Notes: generated by a model from the letters alone, not told the origin. 64,000 nucleotides of DNA from Candidatus Moraniibacteriota bacterium (GCA_013336285.1 JAAXTX010000001.1:20201-84200); one strand, 5' to 3'. Shown: positions 10,291 through 26,423, counted from the stretch's first letter. Numbers and translations are program-made.

Positions 10291-10379
10291 AGGTGTGTTC
10301 GATCACGCGGATTATCATGTCATGGAAATTTCACCCCGGCGGATGACCGATCGACCTGCGGCATCCTTCCGCCTATTCC

Positions 10380-10420
10380 ATTGTTAGTGTATTATACACA
10401 CTATATAAATGATGTCAAAT
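10380..10420 (-). promoter_or_regulatory. consensus sigma70-type promoter (-35 TTGACA, 16-nt spacer, -10 TATAAT) with overlapping palindromic operator TAGTGTATTATACACACTA, driving pnuC-nadR-nrtR
   Basis: Minus-strand reading is ggaTTTGACAtcatttatatagtgtgTATAATacactaac. The 40-nt core is almost identical to the cassette at 25331-25380. The palindrome half-sites TAGTGT/ACACTA overlap the -10 element, a typical repressor position. Confidence 0.55.
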
Positions 10421-10513
10421 CCTCAGCTTTCAAACATCAAAAAAACCGGCGACTCATCATGCAATTTCGCACGATCTGTCGCCGGAACTCACTTTCTCGA
10501 GACGCTCTCAACG

Positions 10514-11182
10514 TCAGTAATAGGCATCCAATTCGCAGGTGTTGGGCATAACCTCCTGTATTGCCGTAAACACCACCGTATCGGCAATCTGTTTCGGAGA
10601 GATGAACCTCACGACCTTGGAACGATATTCGTTTACCATATCTTCCGAAAGACCGTCCCATTCCCTTGTTTCCACCGGACCCAGGAGAAAATCGCACACA
10701 GATAACTCGCCGGCCCTCCCTTCAACGGCGTTGATACTCTTGCCCAGGTTATGTAAAAGCGTGAATGCGCCTGAATAAAAGGGTGCGCCCGGCAATCCCT
10801 TCTTTACGCACTGCCCGAGCATATTGATGATCCTCCCGCCATGAGACATGAATGCCTTTGCGGAAGTGATCGCATAAACATGAGCATCCAGGAACGGCCG
10901 TATCGCAAGGTACCCGCCGAAATCAAAATTGTCGCTCTCAAGAAACGGGATGGCGGCCGTCACCATGAGATCGAAGTCCCTCAGGTCGTCAAACAATCCG
11001 GAAAATAATACTTTGACTTGCTCCATATCCCGAAGGTCGCAACATATGCCCTTACCGGGATTTTCCGGCCTGAACGTATGGAAATACGTCCAGACAACAT
11101 CATACCCAGCCGCATGAAGCGCTTTCACGATCGCACTCCCGATATCGCTTCCACCGCCGATCACCAACGCTTTTTTCTGCTT
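10514..11182 (-). CDS. Rossmann-fold short-chain dehydrogenase/reductase-like protein
   Basis: N-terminal KKALVIGGGSDIGSAIVKALHAAGYDV dinucleotide-binding motif. Start set at the MKQKK internal Met that has an upstream SD. Confidence 0.55.
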   Translation of the reverse strand, partial: KQKKALVIGGGSDIGSAIVKALHAAGYDVVWTYFHTFRPENPGKGICCDLRDMEQVKVLFSGLFDDLRDFDLMVTAAIPFLESDNFDFGGYLAIRPFLDAHVYAITSAKAFMSHGGRIINMLGQCVKKGLPGAPFYSGAFTLLHNLGKSINAVEGRAGELSVCDFLLGPVETREWDGLSEDMVNEYRSKVVRFISPKQIADTVVFTAIQEVMPNTCELDAYY

Positions 11183-11367
11183 CATCTCAAGTTCTCCGTT
11201 TTCGTTTATAATGAGCCTGCTGAAATATTGACTGTAAAAATTACACCATTGATGGTTTCGTGTCAATGTCTATCGTCTATCGTCTCTTCTCCCATCCACC
11301 TCATTTTCTCCGTCTCCCGACCGCCGTATCCCGCCCGACAGCCCGTTCCTTCCGACTTCGCGAAGAT

Positions 11368-11412
11368 ACGGGGATAAAACAACGCCTCGTATCGTAATGA
11401 TGCGAGGCGTTT
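11368..11412 (-). terminator. rho-independent terminator downstream of the purA-like gene
   Basis: Minus-strand AAACGCCTCG-catcattacgata-CGAGGCGTT followed by GTTTTATCCCC. Confidence 0.5.
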
Positions 11413-11436
11413 GAGCGAGGAGCCGTTTATCGTCCC

Positions 11437-12882
11437 TCACAGAAAGAACTTCTGATCCCCGAACGGTCCTACGGAAACCAAGCCGATCGGCATACCGGCC
11501 CCCTTTCCGGACCCGATGAAGCCGAGATACCTACGTGCATTCGAATGCAGACTCCAGGGAAACCTTGCCAACGAGATATCCGTGTTCCATCCCGGAAACT
11601 CCCGAAATTCGAGAGGCCGGCAACGGAACAGCAGTTCCGTGAATCGGGAACGTTCATCTTCATTCCTTTCCGGATCACATATGAGATCCGTTATCCTTAT
11701 CGTCCCATCACGCTTGCGGTGCCATTCGAAGTACCGGTCAAGTTCGACAGCATGGTAATCCCCTTCGCGACAATCCACCTCAAGGGTGTACGACACGCAC
11801 ACCCTTATGACCGGGAACCCCGAAAGTCTGTCCAGATTCGTCACGGCAAGCATCCCTTGTCGATGATTCAGGGACAGCGCGTACCGCGTAGCCAACGTAT
11901 CGAACCACCCGACACGGAACGCCCCCTGCCAAGGATTATGGCCGTTGAACGTTTCTTTGAGATGCCGTGACAGCCCCGGTTCCTCGGTCACGAACGGTCC
12001 GGCACCATGACGATGGGCATACGCTCGCACCACGTTCAACTTCCTTACGGTCGCCTTATCATGCTCCGCTTCCGAGATCAACCGATCGGCATTGGACATC
12101 GTACTGTCGGTTTTCGTCACATGAGGGAAAAAGCCCCCCTTATGATCAAGCAATACTCCCTGCGCCCCCTCGAACACGACTCCGTTCCGAAAATCCGGCC
12201 CGCGAGAGACGATGTTTTCCCTGAACGTTTCTCCGAGGGCGCGATACCCGTCAATAAGACGGTTCTGGTCCATATCCCTCAGAAATTTCTCCAAGGCCGT
12301 CATCGCTCCTTCATGACGATTTTCTGCCGCAAGTTGTTCCGCCTGGTCGATTTTCAGGGACCAGAGGAAACGTATCTTGCGAGAAACGACGTCACTCGTC
12401 AAATCCCCCATTCGGAGCATCTGCGAAGCGAACAGTCTCGAATCGCGGACGGCTTCCCCGACCCCCATTCCGACGCTCCCATGACGATTTTCACCACGAA
12501 CTGATTCCCTCATCTGATTCAGCAACTGATGAAGCGGCGTCACGACGATGCAATCAGGATGGATCGAAATCCGTTCCGATGCGTCGGGCATCCCCTTCCT
12601 TTTGAGGACATTCAGCTCGTCTTGAAGAGTCGCCGGATTCGTCAGCATGTATTCCGAGAGGTATGTCCTCGTTCCCGGAACGAACGACCCCGATCCGACC
12701 TGCGAGAAGCAATGCCATTTCCCCTCCCGTATGAGGACATGGTGAGCCGCCTGCGGTCCGCCATTATAGCGGACCACTTCCCTACTCTCGTTCGACCTGA
12801 CCAGAAAGTCGACGACCGATCCTTTCCCTTCGTCCCCGAATCCCGCGCCGGCCACTATGAACGATGTCTTTTCCACGATCAT
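11437..12882 (-). CDS. adenylosuccinate synthetase (PurA)-family protein, divergent and longer than canonical PurA
   Basis: N-terminal P-loop GAGFGDEGKGSVVDFL matches the PurA GDEGKGK motif. 481 aa. Its start overlaps the upstream gene's stop (ATGA). Confidence 0.6.
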   Translation of the reverse strand: MIVEKTSFIVAGAGFGDEGKGSVVDFLVRSNESREVVRYNGGPQAAHHVLIREGKWHCFSQVGSGSFVPGTRTYLSEYMLTNPATLQDELNVLKRKGMPDASERISIHPDCIVVTPLHQLLNQMRESVRGENRHGSVGMGVGEAVRDSRLFASQMLRMGDLTSDVVSRKIRFLWSLKIDQAEQLAAENRHEGAMTALEKFLRDMDQNRLIDGYRALGETFRENIVSRGPDFRNGVVFEGAQGVLLDHKGGFFPHVTKTDSTMSNADRLISEAEHDKATVRKLNVVRAYAHRHGAGPFVTEEPGLSRHLKETFNGHNPWQGAFRVGWFDTLATRYALSLNHRQGMLAVTNLDRLSGFPVIRVCVSYTLEVDCREGDYHAVELDRYFEWHRKRDGTIRITDLICDPERNEDERSRFTELLFRCRPLEFREFPGWNTDISLARFPWSLHSNARRYLGFIGSGKGAGMPIGLVSVGPFGDQKFFL

Positions 12883-13814
12883 TCCTCCCGATTTTCGATG
12901 GTTTCACGAAACGTTTCCAATATTCCCATGGCGTCCTGAAACGCGTCCGTACGTCTTGTCGAACCGAAACTCATCTCATCGCTCAACATGAAATTGCGAT
13001 AACCCATTTCGCCAAGCATGAGAAGGTCGGCGAGGTCGGCGAGTGAAACCTTCCGGCTTGTACCGAAAGATTCCAACAGTCTCGATGCGGCGATAGCGGT
13101 AGGGTCGGCTTCCACGATGGAGCGAAGGGCGTCGAACATGGCGAACGTATCATCCCGGATATTCTCGAACAGATCGTCCCTTGCCGCCATAAGTCTCACA
13201 TGTCCGCCATATTTTGGATATTCGTTCTTTACGAACGAGAGCCCTTTCGACGATTCGATCTTGGCGATGATCCTCGCCTGAGGATCGAGTTCGAGCAATT
13301 CGCGCAGATCGTTTTCCTCCTCGACGAATGACAACATGTAATTCCTGATTCCGAGTTCCTTCGCGGCCAGAACGTATGCGCGGTCTTCGTCGGTCAGATA
13401 CCCCGCGATACGGAGATTCCTTCCCCGTATGTTCACCGACTGTCCGGCCCCGACCGCTTGAAGCGGCGGCGGGTCGACATACACCCTGTTCCCCGAGACA
13501 CTCCTGATGAAAGTTCCCTGTTGAGAGCCGCGAAAACTGATTTCCGCCGGTATATCGACTTCTATCTCGTGATTGAGAACGATGTCGCCGAATGTCGGCA
13601 CGGCCCACGAAACGATACGAAGCTGCCTCCCCTTCAGGTCGACATACAAGGGCTTGCCTCCCATGACCGCGAGCAGCCGTCTCAACGTCTCCTTGGGATC
13701 AAGCGGCGACCTCGCACCGACGTTGAAACGCGCGGCGGTCAGAGTCCCGTTTGCCGCGATTATGCCGAGAGCATGCTCAAGATGCGGAGGTGGTAATGTC
13801 GCGAAAATTTCCAT
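12879..13814 (-). CDS. pyruvate-kinase-like / HpcH-CitE-like TIM-barrel protein (PEP/pyruvate-domain superfamily)
   Basis: N-terminal region (ATLPPPHLEHALGIIAANGTLTAARFNVGARS) resembles the PK-like barrel N-terminus. 311 aa. Assignment is superfamily-level only. Confidence 0.4.
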   Translation of the reverse strand: MEIFATLPPPHLEHALGIIAANGTLTAARFNVGARSPLDPKETLRRLLAVMGGKPLYVDLKGRQLRIVSWAVPTFGDIVLNHEIEVDIPAEISFRGSQQGTFIRSVSGNRVYVDPPPLQAVGAGQSVNIRGRNLRIAGYLTDEDRAYVLAAKELGIRNYMLSFVEEENDLRELLELDPQARIIAKIESSKGLSFVKNEYPKYGGHVRLMAARDDLFENIRDDTFAMFDALRSIVEADPTAIAASRLLESFGTSRKVSLADLADLLMLGEMGYRNFMLSDEMSFGSTRRTDAFQDAMGILETFRETIENREE

Positions 13815-13879
13815 TTTTTATCTCCCTGTTATTGATTTGTTCTTGCTTTTTAAAAAAACGGTCCCGATAAATCGGACCC

Positions 13880-13912
13880 GATAATATACACGGAATCATT
13901 AATAATGTCAAT
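13880..13912 (-). promoter_or_regulatory. consensus sigma70-type promoter (-35 TTGACA, 17 nt, -10 TATATT) for the PK-like/purA-like sub-operon, followed by CCCGATAA direct repeats
   Basis: Minus-strand aaaagaTTGACAttattaatgattccgtgTATATTatcgggtccgatttatcgggac. Two CCCGATAA copies lie just downstream of the -10. Confidence 0.5.
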
Positions 13913-13931
13913 CTTTTATAAGGGGAATCAT

Positions 13932-13972
13932 GCAAAAAAATAAAAGGGGTGAAGCGATTTCGCCTCACCCCG
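13932..13972 (-). terminator. rho-independent terminator after the Nudix gene
   Basis: GGGGTGAAGCG-attt-CGCCTCACCCC hairpin followed on the minus strand by TTTTATTTTTTTG. Confidence 0.5.
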
Positions 13973-13982
13973 TGTGTTCACC

Positions 13983-14885
13983 TTATACCCGGATATCCAG
14001 CATTCCCAGCGCCTGTTCAAAAAGCTTCCTATGATGAGAATCCTTGAACGACGCTCCAGAAAACTCACGGCGTGACAAAACGACGACTTCTTTGACTTCA
14101 CTGCCATCCCCCTTGAACATTCCTTTCACGTCTGCGACGGAAAGCGTCTTTCCGATCTCGAACACCGCCATATAGGCAGTCGTCATGGAAACCCGCTGAA
14201 ATCCGTACGCGATATCGGCATCGCTGGTAGGTGTAAAGACGGTGCCCAGGAGTTTCAGTCGGCATTCCGACTTCTCACTTCCCTGAAACTCCGCCCGCAC
14301 CTCGATATGATCGGGGTGCGGATTTCCATCATCGCGAGGAAAGGAATCCCGCGGTTTCAACCGCAGACCGATCTCTTCGAACCCCTCCCGGATGGCACTT
14401 TCCGCCGCTGACTCTATCGAGACTCCCTTCTTGTCGATGAAACCTCCGACGAGGGCGAGCGGGCCACTTCCGGCTTCTCCCTTCCGGATACAGATGAAAT
14501 AAAGATTCCCATCGCTATCCCGAATGAACGGAAGAATATCCGCCGCGACGCCCGGCTTATGATATGCCAGATGACCGACTGCATCGGCGACATACAGATA
14601 GGATCCGTTGCCGATATCGTACCGACTGACTCGTACCGCATCGCCGAAATGACCATATCGTCCGACTCCTGCATAAGCATCGGTCGCCAAACACAGCGAT
14701 ATCGACTCCCGACCACTCGGATTCGCAATCAATACCGGATCGTACTGGGACGCTTTCCCCGAATCCGAAATGAATTGTTCCAGAAGGGGCGGGCAATGAT
14801 TCGCCGCAGACAATGTTTCCAAACTGTCAAACGGACGTTTCATCAGTTCCCCCCTATACCCATAAAAGTAAAGATGTTCCTTCAT
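13983..14885 (-). CDS. Nudix hydrolase (ADP-ribose pyrophosphatase-like) with N-terminal extension
   Basis: Canonical Nudix box GGFIDKKGVSIESAAESAIREGFEEIGL. Start chosen at MKEHL, which has an AAAGGAG SD and an ATGA overlap with the ARH stop. The ORF-track start at 14960 would overlap ARH by 78 nt. Confidence 0.7.
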   Translation of the reverse strand: MKEHLYFYGYRGELMKRPFDSLETLSAANHCPPLLEQFISDSGKASQYDPVLIANPSGRESISLCLATDAYAGVGRYGHFGDAVRVSRYDIGNGSYLYVADAVGHLAYHKPGVAADILPFIRDSDGNLYFICIRKGEAGSGPLALVGGFIDKKGVSIESAAESAIREGFEEIGLRLKPRDSFPRDDGNPHPDHIEVRAEFQGSEKSECRLKLLGTVFTPTSDADIAYGFQRVSMTTAYMAVFEIGKTLSVADVKGMFKGDGSEVKEVVVLSRREFSGASFKDSHHRKLFEQALGMLDIRV

Positions 14886-15988
14886 GATTCGCTCCTTTGT
14901 TTTTCCGATAGGGCTTCCGCCAGTTCGGTCGCCGTTTGTATGACTGCTTCCTTCCTCCATAGTCCGTCGATCAGGTGCTCATGCCCTTCGAAAAGAGCCA
15001 TGCCATTCCGAGCCCCGAGCAAGGCGCCAACCATCGATCCGTTCGAATCGGTATCACCGCCGGCATTCACCGTATCGAAGAGCGTCACGATACTCCGCGG
15101 ATTCCGCAGGAACATCGCGTACGTGAACGGGATCGAGTCAAATGCGTAGCATGACCCTTTTCCGAGCGCCGTGGACAATTCTCCGATGTTCATATGCTCC
15201 CAACACCGTGTTTCGAGCATCCATCTCAACCGATCCGAAATCCTATCGGTAATGACATCATCAGAAAGAATGTTCTCACCGACAAGACACGCATCGATGA
15301 CGATTTCCAGGAATCGCGTTTCGAAGTCCTCGTCCGGAAGGGTAAGGCTGGCGAAAACCGCGTAAGCCTGCGCGAGTCCGGACGCCGCTCCCATTTGGGT
15401 CGCATGAGTCATGAGTCCGACTTTGATCATTTTGGCGTCAAAGGCCACACGATACTCGGAAAATCTCTTCTCCATATCGGCGACACTGTATCGCCTGCTC
15501 AGCCGTTGATACGCCGATGCCAGAATCATTCCGAAGGGAGCCGCTTTCATGGCGACACCGTTTCCGGCACCGTTCTCGGTTCCGGACTCACTCCAGTGAA
15601 TCCCCGCTCGGATCTTCTCCAACGCCTTCCTCGTACTCCCGCCCATTCCGCTTATCAGCATGCAGGAATCTGACACGAGTCGACGCGAGATATCATCGCA
15701 GTCAATAAGATAGCTTCCCGGGAATCCCCTTCCTACGCGTCTTATGACATCGATTATCGACTCCGCGCATGCCTGCGTATGACACCAGTCGTCGGTCCAC
15801 ATTCCGGCCTTCATTCCCTCGCCGTGAAACCGGTGGTCTTTCGGCGGATCGACATAGCCCCTGATCCGTCCGAACCTTTTCGCGATCGTTTTCGCGGAAT
15901 ATATTTCCGCCGGCATCCCGAGCGCATCGCCGATAGCGACAAAAAGCATCGCGGCTTTCATGCGGTCTTTCATTCCTTCCAAACCCAT
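14882..15988 (-). CDS. ADP-ribosylglycohydrolase (ARH/DraG family)
   Basis: 368 aa with family hallmarks: N-terminal AIGDALGMPAE, GMWTDD and a C-terminal DTDSNGSMVGALLGA metal-binding motif. Confidence 0.8.
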   Translation of the reverse strand: MGLEGMKDRMKAAMLFVAIGDALGMPAEIYSAKTIAKRFGRIRGYVDPPKDHRFHGEGMKAGMWTDDWCHTQACAESIIDVIRRVGRGFPGSYLIDCDDISRRLVSDSCMLISGMGGSTRKALEKIRAGIHWSESGTENGAGNGVAMKAAPFGMILASAYQRLSRRYSVADMEKRFSEYRVAFDAKMIKVGLMTHATQMGAASGLAQAYAVFASLTLPDEDFETRFLEIVIDACLVGENILSDDVITDRISDRLRWMLETRCWEHMNIGELSTALGKGSCYAFDSIPFTYAMFLRNPRSIVTLFDTVNAGGDTDSNGSMVGALLGARNGMALFEGHEHLIDGLWRKEAVIQTATELAEALSEKQRSES

Positions 15989-16124
15989 ATCCCTCCCTGT
16001 CTTTTGTTGTGAAAAAACATGTTCAGCCCTCTTATTACGGAGCCGAAAAACCGGAATCGAACCGCTTCCATTCCGCTTTTTCGGCGGGAAAGATATTTAC
16101 CTTTCCCGCGAAACCCTTCATGGG

Positions 16125-16829
16125 CTAAAGAACTATCTGTTCGACGATCAACGCACCGCTCTGTTGCATGGAAAACAGCGCGAACAGTTCGCTGAGATCT
16201 CGCGGGTGCACTCCGGGCAAATCATAGGTCACGACCGCATCTATCGGGATGATGACCTGCAGGTCCGACGGAATGAACCCTCTCGTCCGCAGATTCAGGA
16301 TCGCAAGTACCGTTTCCATCACGCAGATATCAGTGCATATGCCGCCGACAATGAGTGTCTTGATCTGACTCGCATTGATCCATTCGATGAATCCGGTAAG
16401 TTTGCCGATATCTCCCACTATGCCGTTATTGCAATCTTTGCGAAGCAGGAATACGAAACAGCTTTTCTCGGTCCACCTGAGCGGCTCGATAATGGCACTT
16501 TCGGGAGTTCCCAGAACGCAGTGTTCCGGATAGACCCCTTCCCGCTGACCAGCCTCATGACCTTCGGCATACATGACGACCGAGGCTTTGATCCAGTTCA
16601 GATATTCCAGCAATCGGACGCATTCCGCGACCATCGCCGGTACCTCACTGTCATCTTTCGGAGGGGACAACGGCCCGCAACCCGGCGTACAGAATCCGTC
16701 CACCAAGTCGATGAACGCGCCCCCTACCGTATTCTCAAGGTGGCGGATATCGTATGCGTCGACGATATTCAGTCCGACTCCATGCCGTTTCGCGAGTTCG
16801 CGAAACTTTTCCGCCTTTTTACTCTGCAT
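16125..16829 (-). CDS. isochorismatase-family cysteine hydrolase (PncA-like nicotinamidase candidate)
   Basis: Catalytic-Cys region TLIVGGICTDICVMETVLAI typical of the isochorismatase/nicotinamidase fold. Start at internal MQSKK with an AAGGAGAAG SD. Confidence 0.6.
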   Translation of the reverse strand: MQSKKAEKFRELAKRHGVGLNIVDAYDIRHLENTVGGAFIDLVDGFCTPGCGPLSPPKDDSEVPAMVAECVRLLEYLNWIKASVVMYAEGHEAGQREGVYPEHCVLGTPESAIIEPLRWTEKSCFVFLLRKDCNNGIVGDIGKLTGFIEWINASQIKTLIVGGICTDICVMETVLAILNLRTRGFIPSDLQVIIPIDAVVTYDLPGVHPRDLSELFALFSMQQSGALIVEQIVL

Positions 16830-17011
16830 ATTCTTCTCCTTTTTTTGTGATACGTTTTTTGATACACGGTTATTTTTTAGGAACCCTGAACGGTCACGGG
16901 ATAAGCCCAAGCTACGTCGGAAAAGACATTCCCCCGACAAAAATTGTCTTGAATTGGAAAATAATGGGGACCGATGCATTCGATATCGGTCCCCGACCTT
17001 TCAAAACGTAC

Positions 17012-18514
17012 TCATAACCGCTTCGTCTTTCCGGAACGATTTTTTCCGGGCGCTCCAGGCAGCGTACCGCTCACTTTGACGATGGCTCCGGCTTTCGCAT
17101 CGGAGAATCCCTCCAAAGCCCTCCTTACCTGACCCTGCCTCAACTGCGTCTGACCGCGCTCGCCCATATCGACGACATACTGGTCCAGACCCGCTCCCGA
17201 GGAGAGAGCTATGGCTCCGAGCATGACGTCCACGATCGCGCGCGGATCATCGATAACAAGGATATTCTCATCCGGTATGACGCCCGCCCACTGATTCCGA
17301 ATCAGCGTGTCATCATACCCGGCATACCGGTCGACGGCTTCGGGCCGTTCATCCGGATCGAACTCGAATTCCCCGACAAAGACGTTCGCCGCGTTATTCG
17401 GATTTTCCACATCTGAAGAACCGCCTCTGACCGATACGACCGGGGCGATACCTTCGAAATGCGCGATTTTCCCGTTTATCTCACTCTCGACCCTGAACGG
17501 AGTGGCCTCTCGCGATGGTTCATGATACGCGAAGTTCTGTACGAACACCTCGTACTTCCCCTTCGGAGCACGCCCTTTCGGCCACCGGGTATTCTCGATC
17601 GGCTTGGTCGTCTCACCATGAACGTTCCTGTCCACGTCGAGTTCGCCGCCGCAGCGCGAATGCTTGTGACTGAAATAGATGTGCTCCCCGCTCGGCGCGA
17701 TGACATGCAGATCGAGATCGTTCCGGTTGTCCCATATCAGCGAGAAGCGGACATCGACACCTTCATGCATGGCACCGGCCTCAAGAACCCTTTTCCTTAT
17801 CTCCTCGTCGATATCGGTCTTGCGTTCCTGCCAGGTCTTCTTCGGATAGATGAAGAACACATCGTATTTCTCCTGGAGTTTCGCGAATACCGTCCCAGAA
17901 TCCAAGTCTTCCGGCAAAGAGTCGCCGATAAGTCGCTTTACCTGATCCTTTGATATCTTGGGGTAGAATCCCTCGTCCCCAAGGAAAAACAGGATGCCTT
18001 TCTCTCCGCGCTTGAGGCAGTCCAACTCCGTATGCGTCGCGTAGTAATAGGCGAGAAGCTCATAGGACTCCTGTCCCGTTCCGCCGCCGCCTTCCTCAAG
18101 CCAGATATTTCCGAGTACTTCGTCCAGCCGGTTGTCCGACTCGAACTGCCCTACCTGAATCGGGGCCTTGTCTCCGCAGGTCGCATCACCGACGGCGGCA
18201 AAACTGATGACCGGATGTTGCACCCACCCTTTCATGATCAGCTGCCCGATAAACATCGGTAGCTTTCCGTAGATGACCTTCGCATCATCGCCGCGCGACC
18301 GCGTATCATCCATCACGACCGCGATCGGTTTGGTGTTCGGATGTTCCGCCGAATCACGACACTCCCGTATCTTCCCCTTGATGTTTAACAAGGGGTGCAC
18401 TTCGCGCTGGGTCGGTTGCGTCGGATCGCTCGCATACCCACGAAAACTGAAATGATCGTTCAGGGAAGAACGCTGACGTTCCCCTACGTCTCCATCGTAA
18501 TGATTATCACCCAT
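17012..18514 (-). CDS. vWA-like domain protein with C-terminal beta-rich domain of unknown function
   Basis: MIDAS-like DDTRS, plus vWA-like GGGTGQESYELL and ILFFLGDEGF segments in the N-terminal half. The C-terminal ~230 aa are uncharacterised. Paired with the J-domain kinase upstream (30-bp gap). Confidence 0.4.
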   Translation of the reverse strand: MGDNHYDGDVGERQRSSLNDHFSFRGYASDPTQPTQREVHPLLNIKGKIRECRDSAEHPNTKPIAVVMDDTRSRGDDAKVIYGKLPMFIGQLIMKGWVQHPVISFAAVGDATCGDKAPIQVGQFESDNRLDEVLGNIWLEEGGGGTGQESYELLAYYYATHTELDCLKRGEKGILFFLGDEGFYPKISKDQVKRLIGDSLPEDLDSGTVFAKLQEKYDVFFIYPKKTWQERKTDIDEEIRKRVLEAGAMHEGVDVRFSLIWDNRNDLDLHVIAPSGEHIYFSHKHSRCGGELDVDRNVHGETTKPIENTRWPKGRAPKGKYEVFVQNFAYHEPSREATPFRVESEINGKIAHFEGIAPVVSVRGGSSDVENPNNAANVFVGEFEFDPDERPEAVDRYAGYDDTLIRNQWAGVIPDENILVIDDPRAIVDVMLGAIALSSGAGLDQYVVDMGERGQTQLRQGQVRRALEGFSDAKAGAIVKVSGTLPGAPGKNRSGKTKRL

Positions 18515-18543
18515 CTTCTTCGACTCCTTTTTTTGATTGTTGT

Positions 18544-19647
18544 TTACGGTAATACGAATTCCAGAAACCTGATCGGCCCCCAGAGTTCGACTCTCAAATC
18601 CTGTAGCATTTTATGCATCTCCCAGGCGTCCTGTGCCCGCTGAATCGGACTTTCCCTCACGAGAAACTCCAGAAATCTTGCGAATCCCGGGGTCGTCCCG
18701 TGTGGCATCCGGTTCGTCTTCACGTTCCCACCGAGCGCGTAAATCATGCTTTTCCCGACAGCGTATAGGTCCGATGACGGCAACGGCGGTTTTCCTTCGG
18801 CGACTTCCGACGGACTGTAATCCTCGTTAAGCACCTTGAACCGCTCACCTGCTTTCTGGCCACCGATCGCATAACTCCAATCGACGAGCGAAAGATTATG
18901 ATCGCGAGGTCGGATCATGACATGCGCCGGCTCGATATTGCCATGAATGACTCCTCGGGAATGAACATACCCTACGACACTCAGGAGACGCGTAAGCATC
19001 CATGCGACGTGTTGTTCAGGTATACCGTTCCGATAACGGTCCGACTCCCTGATAGCCACAAGGTCGTAATAGCCGTCCAGCATCTCCAGGATAAGAGCCT
19101 GACGTCCGTCCTCGGCCTTGAAACGGTCGATCATCATCGGTAGATGCTTGTCCTGTGCTCCCGGATTTTCCTTGAGTCTTCTCAGTGTCCGGATCTCGTT
19201 TTGCATGAGATCGTTGTCCGCCGGATCATCGACCAGCTTCAGCACGATCTTCCGCTCGGTCATCGCGTCGATGCCGTAGTACACGGTCGAAAGATCCCCC
19301 TGGGCCAGACGCGAGCTGATCTTGTACTCCCGATCTCCGACACGGATGGAAAAACTCTCTTCCGCCGTCTCATCGGGAACCGTGGAGCCGTAGACGCCCG
19401 CCTCGATTCTCACCTTTGCCTTCTCAAAGAGCTCCGAGAGCCTCTTGAACGCCCCGTCAGCATCGCTTTTTCTCCGTGAATTCCGATCCGGATGAACCGT
19501 TTTCGATAGGTTTCGATACAGGCGTTTCACTTCGGTCAATTTGTCCCCGACGCCCGTAAGCATACCGAAAATATCTTCCGGTCCGGTCGCGGAACCTATC
19601 CTCTCGGAAAGGATTTCGAATTCCGTTTCACTGACCATATCCAACAC
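18544..19647 (-). CDS. J-domain (DnaJ-like) fused to a divergent Ser/Thr protein-kinase-like domain
   Basis: N-terminal J domain with an HPD motif (KRLYRNLSKTVHPDRN). Kinase fold follows: glycine-rich GDLSTVYYG, VLKL lysine, catalytic loop IHGNIEPAHVMI (HGN in place of HRD) and DWS in place of DFG. Confidence 0.55.
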   Translation of the reverse strand: MLDMVSETEFEILSERIGSATGPEDIFGMLTGVGDKLTEVKRLYRNLSKTVHPDRNSRRKSDADGAFKRLSELFEKAKVRIEAGVYGSTVPDETAEESFSIRVGDREYKISSRLAQGDLSTVYYGIDAMTERKIVLKLVDDPADNDLMQNEIRTLRRLKENPGAQDKHLPMMIDRFKAEDGRQALILEMLDGYYDLVAIRESDRYRNGIPEQHVAWMLTRLLSVVGYVHSRGVIHGNIEPAHVMIRPRDHNLSLVDWSYAIGGQKAGERFKVLNEDYSPSEVAEGKPPLPSSDLYAVGKSMIYALGGNVKTNRMPHGTTPGFARFLEFLVRESPIQRAQDAWEMHKMLQDLRVELWGPIRFLEFVLP

Positions 19648-19797
19648 CTCCTTCTCTCTTTCGTTGTTAAAGTTCCCCTGAAACTACTACATATGCCGAC
19701 CAGGCGCAAGGGATACCCCCACGACTCACCGGCATACGGATAATAACAAGGTGCCGGACCGGAAAAATATGAACTATTTTCCCGGTCCGACGAAAGG

Positions 19798-22248
19798 CTA
19801 TTCAGAATTCCTGTACAGCCCCAACCGTTCTATGTACTCGACGACACCCCGAGGGACGAGATCGTCTATCGATTCACCTCTTGCCAGACGTTCCCGTACC
19901 ATGGTTCCCGACCCTATGATGGGACCCATACAAATCGATTCGGAAACGGGAGGCAATTCTCCGGGAGATATCTCGTGACCCGGACGATCGACGACCACCC
20001 ACTGCAGCGTCTTCCAGATGACCGGACCATGCGTCCAGGTCCTCTGGATATCGGACTTCCCATCAGCCCCCCTGGTGACAAGGTCGGAACCGACCGCGAA
20101 CCAGATATCGGCATCGGGATACCGCTCCGCATACCGCTCCGACAGATGATAACTCGGCGTATATGTCTTATCCCGGATGTCGGTCAGGTCCACGACGACA
20201 CGGTCCAGACCACCGAACGCGATTTCCGACATGACACCGCGATGCATCGGATCGATGACATTCGCAGACGCCTTGTCAGGGCGTTCCCCGCACGGCATCA
20301 CGATTACGAGATCGAACATTTCCGTGAGTACCTTCGCTATGCCGACATGGTGGTTACACGGCGAATTGAAGCTGCCTCCATAGACGGCGATTCTCCGCTT
20401 TCCTCCGTTCCAAGTGCGACCGGCAAGCAGATCCCGTTTCAGACGTTCGTACCGCAACGTCCGCATCACACCGAGCATCGATTCCCGGAAGTCATATCCG
20501 AACGATCTGCGGGACACCTTTATGATAGGTGGGGCCTGCACCCGTTTGCGGACGGAACCGATAAACAGCTCCCAACACCGCTCAAGGTCTTTGACGAACG
20601 TTTCCTTGGTCGGGAACAGTCGGTCCAGCGTTCCTGTATCGAGTTTCATTTCCGCTTCGAGCCGGCCGGTCGCATACAGGTTCAACACCCATTCCGGTCC
20701 CTTCAGGAATTCCACGAACGCCCGCACCAGCTCGTCATGATACCCGCGACGATGCAGGTTCCCATAATCGAACGGGTCGGCCCCCGTCTCTGAAAGCTCC
20801 GCCATCGGCGCTATCGTGAAACATCGATCCGGAATGACCGGGTTCGGGAATACCTTGCGGTTCATATGATCCGCCAACTGGTATACCTCACGTTTCACGA
20901 GATCGCCTATCGGAAGGACGAATCCTGCGATATCGCCGTACATGGTCCCATACCCGAACGCGAGCTCAACCTTGTTCCCGTTTCCGATGAACACCCCACC
21001 GATTTCCTCTGTCTTTGCGGCAAGGATCTCCATGCGTACACGTGCCTGGATATTCGAGTATGCCCGCGTACCGGGTTTACAACCCGCCTTTGCCGCGATC
21101 GCATCGACAAGTTCGCCGATAGGAATCGTTTCGACGGGAACATCCAAACGACGAGCGATATCATACACTAATCCGAGTGTTTCATCGGAAGTATTCTCCG
21201 TCGGCATCGTGACCAGGAACACATTTTCTTTTCCGAGCACCTTGACCGACAATGCCGCCGTAGTAGCGGAATCGATACCGCCCGAGAGCCCAATGACCAC
21301 CTTGCGCATCCCGGATGGAAGCGTTTGGAACTGTTCATAAAAGGCGAAACTCAGGGCATTATACAGATCGGACGTATCGTCCTGGTCCACCGAAGCTATC
21401 GATGGCATATTATCCGCGAAGGTGACATCGGATGTCCCGGAAACGTACGTTCCGGACACGTGCACGATCTTCCCCTGCGAATCATACACGGTCGAACATC
21501 CGTCGAACGTTATGATGTTCTTTCCGTTGTTCTGTATCCCCACGTTGTTCACGTAGATGAGCGGAACCTTGCATTCCGCAAGCAGCATGCGCGCGACCTC
21601 GTTTCGGACCAGGTTCTTATGCCAGTCGTACGGCGAAGAAGACAGGTTGATTATGATGTCCGCCCCTTCCTCCACCAGACGGGCTCCCGGATTGCAGGCA
21701 TGATGCGTATGCCACATGTCCTCGCATATGATGATTCCCAAACGGATCGTCTTTCCCTGGAAAGTCATCTTGATCGGACGAAACGACAGCGGGTCGCCCG
21801 ATTCGAACGATTCTTCCTTCCTGGAGAAGAAATGCCTGTCATCCTCGAATACGCCGTAGTTCGGATGATTCGTCTTGATGACCTGACCGAGCATTACCCC
21901 GTCCCGGACCGCGATCGCCGCGTTCGATATCCTTCGCCGCCCGTTCTTTCCAGTCTTCCCACTTGCGGCAACCAGACTTCCGAACACCACGACGATGTCC
22001 TTTCCGACCGTCGATTCGCGGATCCGATCGTTCCACTCGAGCACGTCGTCGACGAACCCGTCGTTCCCGAACACATCCCCAAGACAATACCCGGGCACGC
22101 TCAGTTCGGGAAACACGATCAGAGGGATGCCGCGCTTCTCGGCGTCGGCGATTTCACGGACGATATGCTCACCGTTCACCCGTGAATTCCCGGGAACGAT
22201 CTTCACCTGGCAGATCGCCGCCTTGAGTCCGTTCAACTTCCTATCCAT
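19798..22248 (-). CDS. nadE: glutamine-dependent NAD+ synthetase (CN-hydrolase + NAD synthetase domains) fused to a C-terminal NadD-like NaMN/NMN adenylyltransferase domain
   Basis: N-terminal nitrilase-like domain (PELSVPGYCLGD). Central PP-loop SGGIDS ATP-pyrophosphatase. C-terminal RIAVYGGSFNSPCNHHVGIAKVL nucleotidyltransferase (H/T-x-G-H-like) domain. 816 aa in a single ORF. Confidence 0.75.
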   Translation of the reverse strand: MDRKLNGLKAAICQVKIVPGNSRVNGEHIVREIADAEKRGIPLIVFPELSVPGYCLGDVFGNDGFVDDVLEWNDRIRESTVGKDIVVVFGSLVAASGKTGKNGRRRISNAAIAVRDGVMLGQVIKTNHPNYGVFEDDRHFFSRKEESFESGDPLSFRPIKMTFQGKTIRLGIIICEDMWHTHHACNPGARLVEEGADIIINLSSSPYDWHKNLVRNEVARMLLAECKVPLIYVNNVGIQNNGKNIITFDGCSTVYDSQGKIVHVSGTYVSGTSDVTFADNMPSIASVDQDDTSDLYNALSFAFYEQFQTLPSGMRKVVIGLSGGIDSATTAALSVKVLGKENVFLVTMPTENTSDETLGLVYDIARRLDVPVETIPIGELVDAIAAKAGCKPGTRAYSNIQARVRMEILAAKTEEIGGVFIGNGNKVELAFGYGTMYGDIAGFVLPIGDLVKREVYQLADHMNRKVFPNPVIPDRCFTIAPMAELSETGADPFDYGNLHRRGYHDELVRAFVEFLKGPEWVLNLYATGRLEAEMKLDTGTLDRLFPTKETFVKDLERCWELFIGSVRKRVQAPPIIKVSRRSFGYDFRESMLGVMRTLRYERLKRDLLAGRTWNGGKRRIAVYGGSFNSPCNHHVGIAKVLTEMFDLVIVMPCGERPDKASANVIDPMHRGVMSEIAFGGLDRVVVDLTDIRDKTYTPSYHLSERYAERYPDADIWFAVGSDLVTRGADGKSDIQRTWTHGPVIWKTLQWVVVDRPGHEISPGELPPVSESICMGPIIGSGTMVRERLARGESIDDLVPRGVVEYIERLGLYRNSE

Positions 22249-22387
22249 ATATGCCTCCTCTTTTTCCGAATGATTGTATAAAAGAACTTCCTTCTCGGCA
22301 CGGACCCGGACTCTTCCGGATCCCTGTTAAAAAGGGATGCGACGGGGAGGATATTCCTCCCCGAGGCATCATCGACATTTCACGCTT

Positions 22388-23488
22388 TCAAATCCTTACT
22401 GTCGACCTGACCATGTCCGACTGCTGATACGCCAACCCTGCCGCGAGCACATCGTATTCGTAACGGAACGCGACATCCTCGAGATCCGATTCGGAACGGA
22501 GCGCTTCCGCAAAGACGTCCGACGTGACATCGAGATCGATACAGAATACCTGGCTCGAGCCGCCCATCGTCCCGCAGAGAGTCGGATCCGACGAACTGAA
22601 CAGCTTGCCGAACCGCATCGTGGCGATATGTCCGTTTACCAGGACATGCGCCGGTTCGAGATGCCTGGCTACGATTTTCACGTCAAGCCCGGTTTCCTCA
22701 CCCAGTTCCCGGATAGCGGCATCCATCGGCGACTCGTAGTCTTCTATCGCTCCGCCGGGAATGGCGAGCCACCCTGGAAAATCCTTTTTCGACGGTTTTC
22801 TCCTGCCGCAAAGGATCATCTTTCCGTTCCCTCTCGATGAACGGCATCGGACGACGATATCCACCGTCTGCCTTCCCGGTATGAACGGCGTCCCCGCATC
22901 GGCGAGCGCCTCGCAGATCATACTGAATCCGCCGAAACTTCCCATAAGCGCGATCGTGCCGGTAGCCGCGATCTTTGCGAACGATTCGTAATCATTTCCC
23001 AGGATCGCGTTCCTCAGATCGGTCGCGTGATACGGAAAACGAAATTTCTCGGCCAGATCCTTCTCCGGATTGATGACGGACAGCGAGCCCGGTATGCCGC
23101 CGCGACTCCTGAATTCGGAAAGGATCTGCTCCTCGTTGCCGGTGACGTAATCCGTCACCCGCTCGAATCCGGGAAAGCCGGTCGTATGCGCCCACCACTT
23201 ATCGAAATCACCGGGAAAATCCTGCAGGTGCACGAAGGAGACTCGCTCGGAATCGATGCCTTCGTTGATCAGGCTCCACAGGATCATCTTCTCGCGGAAT
23301 ACCGCCAGGAGCGGGTGTTTCGACACGCCGACCTCGTAGCAACTCCCGATGCCGATCACGAGACTATCCACCTGTGTCAGGAGCCATACCATGAAAAGGA
23401 TATGCCCCTTATGCGGCGGACTGAATCGTCCGATGACGTATGCCGTCCTTCCGGTCGGTCCGGAAACGATATGAACCCCGTCTTCCAT
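22388..23488 (-). CDS. nadM: bifunctional NadM-type NMN adenylyltransferase / Nudix ADP-ribose pyrophosphatase
   Basis: N-terminal GRFSPPHKGH nucleotidyltransferase motif. C-terminal canonical Nudix box GGAIEDYESPMDAAIRELGEETG. Confidence 0.8.
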   Translation of the reverse strand: MEDGVHIVSGPTGRTAYVIGRFSPPHKGHILFMVWLLTQVDSLVIGIGSCYEVGVSKHPLLAVFREKMILWSLINEGIDSERVSFVHLQDFPGDFDKWWAHTTGFPGFERVTDYVTGNEEQILSEFRSRGGIPGSLSVINPEKDLAEKFRFPYHATDLRNAILGNDYESFAKIAATGTIALMGSFGGFSMICEALADAGTPFIPGRQTVDIVVRCRSSRGNGKMILCGRRKPSKKDFPGWLAIPGGAIEDYESPMDAAIRELGEETGLDVKIVARHLEPAHVLVNGHIATMRFGKLFSSSDPTLCGTMGGSSQVFCIDLDVTSDVFAEALRSESDLEDVAFRYEYDVLAAGLAYQQSDMVRSTVRI

Positions 23489-23606
23489 ATGAGCATTCTC
23501 CTTTTGGTTGCGATCCGATCCTTCCTAAGATCAGGTCTTTTTCTGAAAAAGAACTCATCAAGGGAAAGGTGCCGCGGGAAAATGTTCTTCCCCGCGGCCC
23601 GTTTCG

Positions 23607-24950
23607 TCATACAACTACAACCTGTTTTTTTGAGCCCTCTTCTCCAAATATTTTCTTGAAGAGGGCGACCCTATCCGCCGGGCCGGTCGCTTTTTCCGGA
23701 TTATCGGAAAGTTTCACCGCAGGCACCCCGTTCGCTTCTGATACCTTACAGACCATGGAAAACGGACGGAATAAACCGAATGCCCCGTCATTCCTCGGCC
23801 AGAGTCCGCGACAGTCGTTCCCGACGAGCGTCCCCCAGCCATATGACAATGTCCCGACCGCTGACGCGTTCTCACGAGAACAACCGAGCATGGTGTCAGT
23901 ATCGAGTCCGTCGCTCGGTAAAATCATCTTCGTCATCGGATCGACGCCGTGTCGCTTCCACCACTCAACGGTGACCCGGACAGCCTCGTTCGGCTCCATC
24001 GAGTCCGGACGGACTCCTTTCCAGTCCCTCGCGAACGACGCGGGCGCATGCCTATAGAAGTGAGCGGTCCCATACGTATCCGGAAGAAGGATACTCATAT
24101 CGGGGCCGAAGTAGTCGTACCACTTCTGTGACATGGTGAATGGCGCTTGAAATATCCTATCGTGATCATTCCCCGCCAGACACCCTTCGATCATATACAG
24201 CTCGTGAGCGTTCGTACCTTTCGGATTCGCGCTCCCATGCTGCATGGCCAGAAGGACATTCGAAGTCCCGAGACACTGCGACGGAAGCATTTCCGACATG
24301 TACCTCATCACGATCTCCTGGAAAAATCGGCTCTGTCTCCGCCTCGTATCGAAAAGGATGAAGGAAAGCGCGCGTTCCTCACGCAACGCCTTCGCCTTTT
24401 CGAAAAGCCTGGCGACCATACCCGTGTATATCGACAGAATCTCCGATGAGGAAAGCTTCGCGTTCAGGATCAGATGGTAGTAATAAAGCTCCGAAACGAT
24501 CACCATCGCAATTATTTCCCAGAACGTCACCTTCCATGAGGGACCGGTGAAGGTCAGAACATACCCGCCTTCCTGTTTCTCCAGTATGAATGGAGGCAAG
24601 ACCGGACGAGACATCTCTTCCAGAAAATCATCCGACCGGATCAGGCGAGTTCGCCCGTCACTTCCTGTCATTCCTGCCAGGAACGACCGTTCCGCCGGCG
24701 TAAGACAAAGAGCCCTTGCCGCCTCAAGTTGTTCACGAAGCACATCTTCCGGGATGATGTCGGCCAGACGGATATACTTGTCACGAATGATAAGCTTGAA
24801 GGTCGTCTCGACATCCCTGTATTCGGCATGATCGAAATAGAATACGGCCATGAACCATTTGTACACGTCCGTATCGATCAGGCTTTTGACGATCGCTTCC
24901 CCGTTCGGGATACAGAATATATCCCGCAGACCGAGCCCTTGTAATTTCAT
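23607..24950 (-). CDS. pncB: nicotinate (or nicotinamide) phosphoribosyltransferase, PncB-like
   Basis: N-terminal LIDTDVYKWFMAVFYF matches the LLDTD.YK motif of type II PRTases of the NAPRT/NAMPT family. 447 aa. Confidence 0.65.
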   Translation of the reverse strand: MKLQGLGLRDIFCIPNGEAIVKSLIDTDVYKWFMAVFYFDHAEYRDVETTFKLIIRDKYIRLADIIPEDVLREQLEAARALCLTPAERSFLAGMTGSDGRTRLIRSDDFLEEMSRPVLPPFILEKQEGGYVLTFTGPSWKVTFWEIIAMVIVSELYYYHLILNAKLSSSEILSIYTGMVARLFEKAKALREERALSFILFDTRRRQSRFFQEIVMRYMSEMLPSQCLGTSNVLLAMQHGSANPKGTNAHELYMIEGCLAGNDHDRIFQAPFTMSQKWYDYFGPDMSILLPDTYGTAHFYRHAPASFARDWKGVRPDSMEPNEAVRVTVEWWKRHGVDPMTKMILPSDGLDTDTMLGCSRENASAVGTLSYGWGTLVGNDCRGLWPRNDGAFGLFRPFSMVCKVSEANGVPAVKLSDNPEKATGPADRVALFKKIFGEEGSKKQVVVV

Positions 24951-25154
24951 GCTTTCCTCCTTTTTCGGTTGTAATTGATATGACTTTATAAAGAACCCTT
25001 CACCCCGAGAGGTCTCGGGATGGGAAGAGCGGGACCGATACGCATCCGTCCGGCCATTCCGCCATACTTTTCATCCCTTGCCTGAGCCAAAATTCGACGC
25101 AGAAGCAAGATTGGACGATAACATATATGAACAATGCTGTCAATTATCTCAATG

Positions 25155-25210
25155 GTCCGTTACTTAGTGTTGTATAAACAATATATATCAGTTATTACTG
25201 ATTGTCAAGA
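25155..25210 (-). promoter_or_regulatory. consensus sigma70-type promoter (-35 TTGACA, 17 nt, -10 TATATT) for the pncB-nadM-nadE... operon, with an operator-like ACACTAAGTAA half-site at the start site
   Basis: Minus-strand reading is tcTTGACAatcagtaataactgataTATATTgtttatacaacactaagtaacgg. Confidence 0.5.
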
Positions 25211-25330
25211 AATACATTCCGTTCCGTTCCCGGATACGAAACCGGGCAAGGGAACAGATGCGACGGCTATCTCCCTAAAGTACCGCAACAAGGTTATTCT
25301 TAAGCCATATTCCCCGTTCAATCATATCCG

Positions 25331-25380
25331 GATTTGACAGGATTTATATAGTGTGTATAATACACTTAGTAAGTTCACAA
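25331..25380 (+). promoter_or_regulatory. consensus sigma70-type promoter (-35 TTGACA, 16 nt, -10 TATAAT) with overlapping palindrome TAGTGTGTATAATACACT, driving the isochorismatase-vWA-PP2C-kinase operon
   Basis: gatTTGACAggatttatatagtgtgTATAATacacttagtaag is nearly identical to the pnuC promoter at 10380-10420. A third related motif, TACTTAGTGTGTTACTTAC, lies at 25508-25530. Confidence 0.55.
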
Positions 25381-25607
25381 GGGAAAGGACGGACAGGAAG
25401 ACGAAGGAGTCACTCAGACAACCGACGGGACCTATTTCATTCCCGGTATCGCTGCCTAAACGACTATTCCTCTCCCATACCGATGCCTTGGCATCGTATC
25501 TCCTTCCCTACTTAGTGTGTTACTTACATTATATAAGCATCTTTACAACTGGATAGGCAGACGAACAACATGGCCTGTTCGAAACGTCAACAAAAAAGGA
25601 GACTACG

Positions 25608-26423
25608 ATGAAAGCACATCTTCTCATCATCGATCCGCAGAATGATTTCATGGACAGTCCGAATTCATCCCTGCCCGTGACCGGTGCAAACGACGACATG
25701 CGTCGCGTCGCCACTCTCGTGAAGCGAGTCGGCAAAAGACTCGACGATATTCACGTCACGCTCGACTCACACCGCGTCATCGATGTCGGCCATCCCGGAA
25801 TGTGGAGGGATCAGGACGGCAATCAGCCGAATCCATTCACCATAATCGGATCGGACGACATCAGGAACCGTATCTGGGCACCCAGAAGGGAGCACCTCTG
25901 GAAAAAAATGCTCGAATACGCGTTGGCGCTTGAGGCGGGGAAGAAATACCCGCTCATGGTCTGGCCCGAACACTGCGTTATCGGCACACCGGGACACAAT
26001 GTCCAGGCGGAACTGATGGCGGCGCTCATGGAGTGGGAACGCAAGGAATTCGCGAATGTCGACTACGTCGCGAAGGGCACGAACGCTTTCACGGAGCACT
26101 ACGGCGCGCTCATGGCCGAGGTTCCCGATCCGGACGACCCTTCGACCGGACTCAATGTCGGACTGCTCACGGTCCTCGCGGAAGCAGACATCATCGGCAT
26201 CGCCGGGGAGGCGCTCAGCCACTGCGTGAAGTCTACCGTCGATCAGATCGCGGAGAATATCGGCGAGGAACACATCAAGAAGTTCCATATCCTGACCGAC
26301 TGTACCAGTCCCGTTTCCAAAGTCGGCGACGGACCTGACTTTCCCGCCATTGCGGGCGAGTGGCTCGACGACATGAAAAAGCGCGGTGCGAAACTCGTCA
26401 CATCGGAAAACTTCCTACCCTGA
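25608..26423 (+). CDS. isochorismatase-family hydrolase (second PncA-like paralog)
   Basis: LLIIDPQNDF N-terminal motif. Catalytic-Cys region IIGIAGEALSHCVKSTVDQIA. SD AAAGGAG upstream. Confidence 0.6.
   Translation: MKAHLLIIDPQNDFMDSPNSSLPVTGANDDMRRVATLVKRVGKRLDDIHVTLDSHRVIDVGHPGMWRDQDGNQPNPFTIIGSDDIRNRIWAPRREHLWKKMLEYALALEAGKKYPLMVWPEHCVIGTPGHNVQAELMAALMEWERKEFANVDYVAKGTNAFTEHYGALMAEVPDPDDPSTGLNVGLLTVLAEADIIGIAGEALSHCVKSTVDQIAENIGEEHIKKFHILTDCTSPVSKVGDGPDFPAIAGEWLDDMKKRGAKLVTSENFLP

Follow-up and report, generated by a model that had tools for sequence, protein, structure and literature searches.

A conserved J-domain pseudokinase and its vWA partner in the NAD gene cluster of a 'Candidatus Moranbacteria' contig

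The gene pair and its features

The DNA considered here is a window of 64,000 nucleotides from a metagenome contig of 'Candidatus Moranbacteria', which belongs to the Candidate Phyla Radiation (CPR, or Patescibacteria). On its minus strand lie two adjoining genes, one encoding a J domain fused to a degenerate kinase fold (termed here the J-pseudokinase) and the other a 500-residue protein with a vWA domain. The two products are identical to HGA31_00185 and HGA31_00180. As described below, this pair is not a stand-alone signalling couple but a conserved, horizontally mobile unit, usually found in an operon with a divergent PurA-like ligase. What the parts are, and that they form an operon, is regarded as secure. 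The pair has the following features.

18544-19647, minus strand: J-domain pseudokinase gene (open reading frame, Pfam, AF2 and Foldseek)
19399-19629, minus strand: J domain, about residues 7-83, with helices at 7-19, 36-51 and 57-83 (Pfam, AF2 and PDB search)
18580-19353, minus strand: pseudokinase domain, about residues 99-356 (62-sequence alignment and 147 representatives)
17012-18514, minus strand: vWA/beta-sandwich protein, 500 amino acids
18485-18514, minus strand: near-invariant N-terminal peptide of the vWA protein
17780-18337, minus strand: main part of the vWA domain, about residues 60-245 (61-sequence alignment and fold)
17360-17758, minus strand: inserted beta-sandwich, about residues 253-385, possibly distantly DUF2135/YfaP-like and absent from the short phage and plasmid forms
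17012-17317, minus strand: returning vWA strand, helical C-terminal region (residues 400-477) and basic tail ending in RL

The J-pseudokinase gene encodes 367 amino acids if read from a GTG at 19647 and 364 if read from an ATG at 19638. The ATG is the likelier start because an AAGGAGG box lies 8 nucleotides before it and the NCBI gene model also has 364 amino acids. The vWA gene has its own ribosome-binding site (AAGGAG, 8 nucleotides before its ATG) and begins 29 nucleotides after the J-pseudokinase stop codon. The initial annotation had placed a vWA gene immediately downstream; both reading frames and their tight pairing on the minus strand hold, and the gap, given there as 30 bp, measures 29 nucleotides.

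A J domain joined to a kinase fold

The product of the first gene is a cytoplasmic J-domain protein whose C-terminal two-thirds has a Hanks-type kinase fold. Both domains had been proposed from the sequence of the window, and both are recovered by profile and structure comparison. The peptide on which the J domain was first recognised, LYRNLSKTVHPDRN, occupies residues 43-56 of the 367-residue product; it falls within a Pfam DnaJ match that exceeds the gathering score (29.9 versus 27.8 bits, residues 38-74), and its H52-P53-D54 sits between helices II and III of the J domain. When the N-terminal 97 residues are searched against the PDB, all of the matches are J domains. The remainder of the protein matches Pfam Pkinase above threshold (54 bits versus a gathering score of 31.7, residues 108-308). 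The AF2 model of the whole protein has a predicted local distance difference test (pLDDT) score of 94.7, and Foldseek searches with this model return the kinase domains of PLK1, PknB and Aurora with E values near 1e-12 and target-normalised TM-scores of about 0.75.

The kinase fold departs from active kinases at several key sites. In the catalytic loop, VIHGNIEPAHV (H235-G-N237-I-E239-P-A-H242), the catalytic Asp is replaced by Asn, the Lys by Glu and the Asn by His, and the DFG position is occupied by DWS (LVDWSYA), so that the substitutions of HGN for HRD and DWS for DFG first reported for this protein are correct. The Gly-rich loop is also degenerate (L-A-Q-G-D-L-S-T-V-Y), with one conserved Gly plus an Asp and no GxGxxG. 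These features are shared by 62 aligned close homologues, in which the catalytic loop has the consensus H-G-N-[IVL]-[ED]-P-x-H and the Gly-rich loop AxGDLS, and none of which has the catalytic Asp. In the same alignment, the β3 Lys (K137) and αC Glu (E151) are kept in every sequence, the DFG Asp (D256) is kept in 59 as DWS, DWC or DWA, and the APE Glu (E281) and its Arg partner (R337) are invariant. The ATP-anchoring Lys137-Glu151 pair and the metal-binding Asp256 thus persist, whereas the Gly-rich loop and three residues of the catalytic loop (the catalytic Asp, the Lys and the Asn) are gone.

A wider sample was drawn from a HMMER scan of 1.8 billion representatives. The third residue of the catalytic loop was compared in 147 diverse representatives taken from it, the best of 1190 family clusters at 50% identity (E ≤ 1e-30): this residue is Asn in about 80, Ala in 25 and Asp in only 4, the rest having Ser, Gly, Cys, His or another residue. 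Because the former Asp position drifts among small and polar residues, the pattern indicates that its role was lost rather than exchanged for new chemistry. The conservation pattern therefore marks the family as one of pseudokinases, which probably still bind nucleotide, and not of atypical catalysts. The first description of the protein had left this choice open; its pseudokinase half stands and its atypical-kinase half is disfavoured.

The J domain of the window protein combines the HPD motif with a basic helix II, and it is plausible from these residues that it recruits Hsp70 (DnaK). The HPD motif is intact in 48 of the 62 close homologues, in 25 of 56 species-representative proteins and in about 49 of the 147 diverse representatives. 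It is found more often at loci with a pyruvate-kinase-like gene and NAD genes nearby (16 of 23) than at others (8 of 29), an odds ratio of about 6 that is not corrected for phylogeny. In a Myxococcota branch of the family, the place of the J domain is taken by a zinc ribbon together with a beta-rich segment. One variant locus, on a Myxococcota-type metagenome contig, places a zinc-ribbon pseudokinase beside a Band7/SPFH double-zinc-ribbon protein, a PP2C gene and a divergently oriented PurA-like gene. The C-terminus of the J-pseudokinase carries a conserved GPxxFLEFxM-COOH motif.

The vWA protein

The product of the second gene is an adaptor-type protein in which a complete metal-ion-dependent adhesion site (MIDAS) vWA domain is combined with an inserted beta-sandwich and a helical C-terminal region. 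Its vWA domain has the expected Rossmann-like fold, and the MIDAS is formed by D69-x-T71-x-S73, a GGGG-T146-GQES loop and D180, the Thr and Ser assignments being read from the alignment. D69, S73 and D180 are invariant among 61 aligned sequences, and the remaining MIDAS residues are invariant or nearly so. The full-length protein has no match among Pfam, NCBIfam or PADLOC models, and its alignment profile finds nothing significant among PDB sequences.

The beta-rich domain had been predicted to follow the vWA domain at the C-terminus. Both domains are present; the beta-sandwich (residues 253-385), however, is an insertion before the last vWA strand, and short homologues in phages and plasmids join the flanking segments directly. 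Any relation to DUF2135 (PF09906) would be distant: the window protein itself has no match, 4 of the 61 homologues match weakly (best E 0.0018), and NCBI calls one homologue a 'YfaP family protein'. The sandwich does match phrog_1735 (E 8e-30). Counterparts that are 33-40% identical to the insert (residues 234-353) occur inside the 676-residue phrog_1735 protein, which is encoded at 2777-4807 of Klebsiella phage KPP-1 and is known from Ackermannviridae, Vequintavirinae and phiCbK-like phages, in all from hundreds of phages of Salmonella, Klebsiella, Escherichia and Caulobacter.

Both termini of the vWA protein are predicted to be disordered and yet are near-invariant. The N-terminal peptide, MGDNHYDGDV in the window, has the family consensus M-G-G-G-x-Y-[D/S]-G-D-V, with G2 and Y6 conserved in all 118 sequences compared, D9 in 113 and V10 in 110; a similar MGxGx[WY] motif begins the phage and plasmid forms. 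At the other end, about 90% of 120 homologues terminate in x-R-L.

A conserved operon with a PurA-like ligase

Loci of the family were collected from GTDB species representatives (80 loci), conserved neighbours were analysed over 86 loci, and the linkage of partners was assessed by tblastn. The recurrent gene order is J-pseudokinase, vWA protein, an optional pyruvate-kinase-barrel-like (PK-like) protein of about 310 residues, and a PurA-like protein of about 470 residues. In 63 of the 74 species-representative loci that were informative, the gene directly upstream of the vWA gene, on its strand, is that of the J-pseudokinase. A PurA-like gene is present in 39 of the 53 loci informative for it and stands directly downstream in 29, and the PK-like gene adjoins that of the vWA protein in 25 loci. 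The genes are separated by short gaps or overlap, and in many loci it is the vWA and PurA-like reading frames that do so. Altogether, the family occurs in at least 157 GTDB species representatives from at least 8 phyla, and the hosts of the operon include Patescibacteria, Acidobacteriota, Myxococcota, Leptospirales, Planctomycetota, Omnitrophota, Gammaproteobacteria and others. Apparent fusions between operon members were rejected, the long PurA-like reading frames being due to over-extended starts set by the gene caller, and a '714-aa cluster' in Nannocystis proved to be an antisense artefact. The window contains both further members.

12879-13814, minus strand: PK-like protein, 311 amino acids, optional third operon member
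11437-12882, minus strand: divergent PurA-like GTP-dependent ligase of the 'WQG clade', 481 amino acids, usual third or fourth operon member

The PK-like protein is only distantly related to pyruvate kinase, with matches below the gathering score of Pfam PK (E 1.5e-5) and far below the cut-off of NCBIfam pyruvate kinase (E 2e-9). The PurA-like protein belongs clearly to the adenylosuccinate synthetase family (Pfam Adenylsucc_synt, E 6e-69) and has in common with PurA and PurZ the GDEGKG P-loop, FEGAQG, GWFD and the LD motif of guanine specificity. It differs from them in scoring below the cut-offs of two NCBIfam PurA equivalogs (194 versus 402 bits and 178 versus 396 bits) and of the PurZ model (53 versus 300 bits). 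It also differs in its Asp-binding loop, where TTGRxRR is replaced by WQGxFR ([WF]Q[GS]xFR in the clade); the canonical loop is found in none of the 120 best homologues. These changes suggest that the clade is a distinct, neofunctionalised paralogue, which probably uses a different amine substrate. In public annotation, its members are called simply adenylosuccinate synthetase. PHROGs places the protein in phrog_1211, whose label '2-aminooxy adenylosuccinate synthetase' (also RefSeq NC_008207 gp252) appears to be a garbled PurZ-type name that has been passed on to proteins below the PurZ cut-off.

Phage and plasmid copies

The operon is also carried by mobile elements. A tblastn search with the vWA protein finds 662 phage records, 201 of which are Mycobacterium phages. 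In about 200 records, Bixzunavirus (cluster C1) mycobacteriophages have the three genes in the order of a 'kinase' (357 aa), a vWA homologue (351 aa) and a 'PurA-like adenylosuccinate synthetase', with pairwise E values against the window proteins of 1e-40, 5e-45 and 9e-60, respectively. The phage kinase (gp249) contains VHPDR, HGAITPDN (with Ala at the catalytic Asp) and DWC, and the phage PurA-like protein contains WQGKFR. The notes of the SEA-PHAGES programme record only that the kinase and PurA-like genes are conserved in C1 phages. Megaplasmids of Rhodococcus and Tsukamurella carry the kinase, vWA and PurA-like genes plus a Nudix hydrolase gene, and a Rhizobium jumbo phage has the vWA and PurA-like genes near a PRTase-like gene and an NMNAT/Nudix gene. 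The long form was not found in the viral contigs of IMG/VR.

The NAD salvage context

In the window, the pair lies inside a large cluster of genes for the salvage and synthesis of nicotinamide adenine dinucleotide (NAD).

7837-26423, minus strand (25608-26423 on the plus strand): surrounding NAD cluster
7837-8517, minus strand: NrtR
8588-9775, minus strand: NadR-like protein
9580-10290, minus strand: PnuC
13983-14960, minus strand: Nudix-like protein
14882-15988, minus strand: ADP-ribosylglycohydrolase
16125-16979, minus strand: isochorismatase/nicotinamidase-like protein
19753-19791, minus strand: hairpin with a 17-bp stem, between the NadE-NMNAT and J-pseudokinase genes
19798-22248, minus strand: fusion of NadE (glutamine-dependent NAD synthase) and NMNAT, 816 amino acids, immediately upstream of the pair (CN_hydrolase, NAD_synthase and NMNAT domains)
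22388-23488, minus strand: NadM-Nudix protein
23607-24950, minus strand: NAPRT
25608-26423, plus strand: nicotinamidase-like protein

A similar context recurs elsewhere. The NadE-NMNAT fusion is also found upstream of the pair in 16 related loci, which come from several phyla, and in many loci the operon is co-directional with NadE-NMNAT (16 loci), a PRK-family kinase (11 loci), NMNAT, nicotinamidase, NAPRT or NrtR. One Parcubacteria locus adds NadA, NadB, NadE and NAD kinase.

The hairpin upstream of the pair is one of a set of similar GC-rich intercistronic hairpins (CGGGRAAR...YTTYCCCG) at 16084-16109, 19753-19791, 22343-22363 and 23572-23597, between minus-strand genes of the NAD cluster. 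Exact-arm instances number 7 in the window compared to about 0.5 in shuffled sequence. Possible roles for them are those of a terminator, attenuator, RNA-processing site or operator. A search of the window for NrtR operators gave no clear operator and only this set of hairpins; Rfam gave no riboswitch or other match at gathering score, and no tRNA was found in the window.

At one edge of the NAD cluster, NrtR is adjoined by a tyrosine recombinase (Phage_integrase) gene at 6738-7796 on the plus strand, which is itself next to a LysM-CHAP peptidoglycan hydrolase gene at 5403-6683 on the minus strand. About 7 kb from the pair, on the plus strand, lies a group of three genes (26460-29906), and the initial annotation regarded the pair as a second kinase and vWA pairing in the same island as this group (given there as 26472-29906). 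That link is not supported. BLASTP finds no similarity between the two sets, and the three-gene group is not co-conserved in any related locus. Only its middle gene, a PP2C (E 3e-15), could be verified, its 578-residue 'kinase' having sub-threshold kinase matches only and its 252-residue 'vWA' no match in Pfam, NCBIfam or PDB sequence searches.

A possible mechanism

The explanation judged likeliest, which is proposed here tentatively at somewhat less than even confidence, is that the pair is a non-catalytic, nucleotide-sensing scaffold or adaptor that controls the PurA-like ligase, with DnaK as its motor where the HPD motif is intact. In this scheme, which is built by analogy, the pseudokinase would act as a nucleotide-binding sensor or scaffold without catalysis, and the metal site of the vWA MIDAS would grip an acidic residue of a partner. 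Candidates for this partner are the PurA-like enzyme, a conserved DNDL loop of the pseudokinase and the YDGDV segment of the vWA protein's own N-terminus. Where HPD is intact, as it is in the window, the J domain would bring in the housekeeping DnaK as an ATP-driven motor, and DnaK would assemble, release or reset the complex of scaffold and PurA-like enzyme. The output would be control of the PurA-like ligase and thereby of the restoration of adenine-nucleotide and NAD pools. Such a device would be an analogue of the MoxR(AAA+)-vWA enzyme activases in which Hsp70 replaces MoxR. vWA domains have been described as peptide-binding co-chaperones of an NTPase motor (PMC7159879).

Several observations weigh against this mechanism. 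The wider family has lost HPD in roughly half of its members or more. Since HPD is so often lost and the J domain is swapped in the Myxococcota branch, recruitment of DnaK cannot be the universal core of the system. The link to the PurA-like enzyme is also incomplete: about a quarter of the informative loci have no gene for it, and some WQG-clade genes stand alone without the pair. In the window, the isochorismatase/nicotinamidase-like, ADP-ribosylglycohydrolase and Nudix-like genes separate the pair from the PK-like and PurA-like genes, and the PK-like gene is itself preceded by a strong terminator and a promoter-like site. In Nannocystis spp., vWA homologues of 51-53% identity have no recognisable J-pseudokinase or PurA-like neighbour, their flanking reading frames having no Pfam matches. 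Finally, no J-pseudokinase was detected near the vWA and PurA-like genes in Rhizobium phage RHph_TM40.

Alternative explanations

The best-surviving alternative, though an unlikely one, is that the genes form a biological-conflict system for defence or phage counter-defence, in which the pair senses an invader or damage and the PurA-like protein is an effector that alters or restores purine and NAD pools. The patchy distribution across phyla at 50-65% identity would fit such a role, as would carriage by lytic mycobacteriophages and megaplasmids, the association with Nudix, ADP-ribosylglycohydrolase and NAD salvage genes, and the presence of the PP2C/kinase-like cluster and of UvrD nearby in the window. 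Rebuilding of NAD+ is a known phage response to NAD-depleting immunity. The kinase domain also matches the PADLOC models PD-T4-6, MkoA and mad6; these matches in PADLOC-DB 2.0 are, however, generic kinase-domain matches, and the vWA protein matches nothing there, so that identity with a known anti-phage defence system was rejected. Moreover, the sequences are more strongly conserved than is usual in a conflict system, and the conserved neighbours include no effector of the nuclease, pore or NADase type. The genes run in the same direction as housekeeping NAD genes in CPR and other genomes and are found near NrtR there, and the absence of the long form from IMG/VR viral contigs also counts against this role.

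An active atypical kinase is less probable still. It would transfer phosphate, or AMP or another group, to the vWA protein (for example to Tyr6), to the PurA-like enzyme or to DnaK brought in by the J domain. Kinase-fold enzymes with non-canonical active sites can be active, as are SelO and SidJ and, weakly, the JH2 domain of JAK2. In the J-pseudokinase, the retention of K137, E151, D256, the APE Glu and R337 and the conservation of polar active-site surroundings (H235, E239, H242 and D249-H250-N251) would be in keeping with catalysis; Tyr6 is invariant, and a PP2C gene lies near the one variant locus mentioned above. Against this, the replacement of the catalytic Asp is not fixed (Asn, Ala, Ser, Gly, Cys or His, with Ala in the phage protein), which fits relaxed constraint. 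In the catalytic loop, Glu, Asp or Thr takes the place of Lys, and His that of Asn in most members; the degenerate Gly-rich loop carries an Asp, and no phosphatase is conserved in the neighbourhood.

A more radical proposal is that the three proteins are a mobile device with new chemistry that rescues adenylate and NAD pools, serving in phages as counter-defence, the PurA-like enzyme coupling 6-phospho-IMP to an amine other than aspartate. This is highly unlikely. Its support comes from the MGGGxY N-terminus, which is invariant, from the change in the PurA loop and from the strict linkage of the genes. One candidate for the amine is the exposed α-amine of the invariant vWA Gly2, which would give a protein-tethered, N6-linked adenylate; the ATP pocket of the pseudokinase might read this adenylate, and DnaK brought in by the J domain might reset the complex.

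Least credible of all is the explanation that the PurA-like gene is a housekeeping PurA and that the J-pseudokinase and vWA genes merely sit beside nucleotide-metabolism genes: it would agree with the public label 'adenylosuccinate synthetase' and with the three genes and terminator between the pair and the PurA-like gene in the window, but not with a gene order kept across unrelated phyla, phages and plasmids, with scores below all PurA equivalog cut-offs and an Asp-binding loop that is gone, or with the overlap of vWA and PurA-like reading frames in many loci.

Comparison with known systems

The scaffold mechanism proposed above finds a parallel in the MoxR(AAA+)-vWA pairs, which include CbbQ-CbbO, NorQ-NorD, RavA-ViaA and BchI-BchD. 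In both cases a MIDAS vWA adaptor lies next to a target enzyme and is, or here would be, coupled to an ATP-driven remodelling motor. In contrast to these pairs, no MoxR or other AAA+ gene is found among the conserved neighbours (86 loci), and the presumed motor is the host DnaK acting in trans. The relation is thus one of analogy and not of membership.

A kinase fold and a J domain also share one polypeptide in the eukaryotic GAK/auxilin-2, which has its kinase, an active one, at the N-terminus and its J domain at the C-terminus, and which acts on clathrin; its J domain recruits Hsp70 for the remodelling of a specific assembly. In the J-pseudokinase the J domain is N-terminal, the kinase is dead and the protein is encoded by bacteria and phages; homology beyond the domain families is not implied. 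Among pseudokinases, JAK JH2 and HER3 have HGN or HRN in place of HRD and keep the β3 Lys, αC Glu and DFG Asp, a combination typical of ATP-binding regulatory pseudokinases. The J-pseudokinase resembles them in the change of catalytic Asp to Asn and in keeping its ATP-anchoring residues, and differs in its unrelated lineage and in the additional changes to the catalytic-loop Lys and Asn and to the Gly-rich loop.

Two further systems offer partial likenesses. The TerY-P triad, reportedly described by Anantharaman et al. in 2012, consists of a vWA protein, a PP2C phosphatase and a Ser/Thr kinase. Like it, the present operon pairs a kinase-fold gene with a vWA gene near nucleotide-metabolism genes; unlike it, the operon has no conserved adjacent phosphatase, a dead kinase and a PurA-like ligase as partner. 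Rki of phage RB43 is a stand-alone J protein that hijacks DnaK. Mycobacteriophage gp249 carries VHPDR and could likewise engage the host DnaK, although its J domain is fused to a pseudokinase and its gene is in an operon with vWA and PurA-like genes.

The domain types of the J-pseudokinase and vWA protein are familiar, and their architecture and the triad with the PurA-like protein appear to be undescribed. The family is not among the bacterial pseudokinase families listed in a 2025 review (PMC12599244), and the literature searched in full text contained no description of the J-pseudokinase/vWA pair or of the triad.

Significance

The family is large, with at least 1190 pseudokinase clusters at 50% identity and more than 1500 vWA homologues, and most of the records inspected label the pair genes 'hypothetical protein', 'kinase' or 'serine/threonine kinase'. 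The present analysis provides a testable hypothesis for this large unannotated family. It also flags a likely mis-annotation, in that a clade labelled 'adenylosuccinate synthetase' probably has another function.

If the proposed mechanism is true, a J-domain pseudokinase and a MIDAS adaptor would constitute a new route for coupling Hsp70 to an enzyme, parallel to the MoxR-vWA activases. The homeostasis of NAD and purine nucleotides in CPR bacteria would also be connected to genes in about 200 mycobacteriophage records, and these phages are genetically tractable in M. smegmatis. In addition, if the phage copies protect nucleotide and NAD pools, the family would bear on the contest between NAD-depleting immunity and phage counter-measures.

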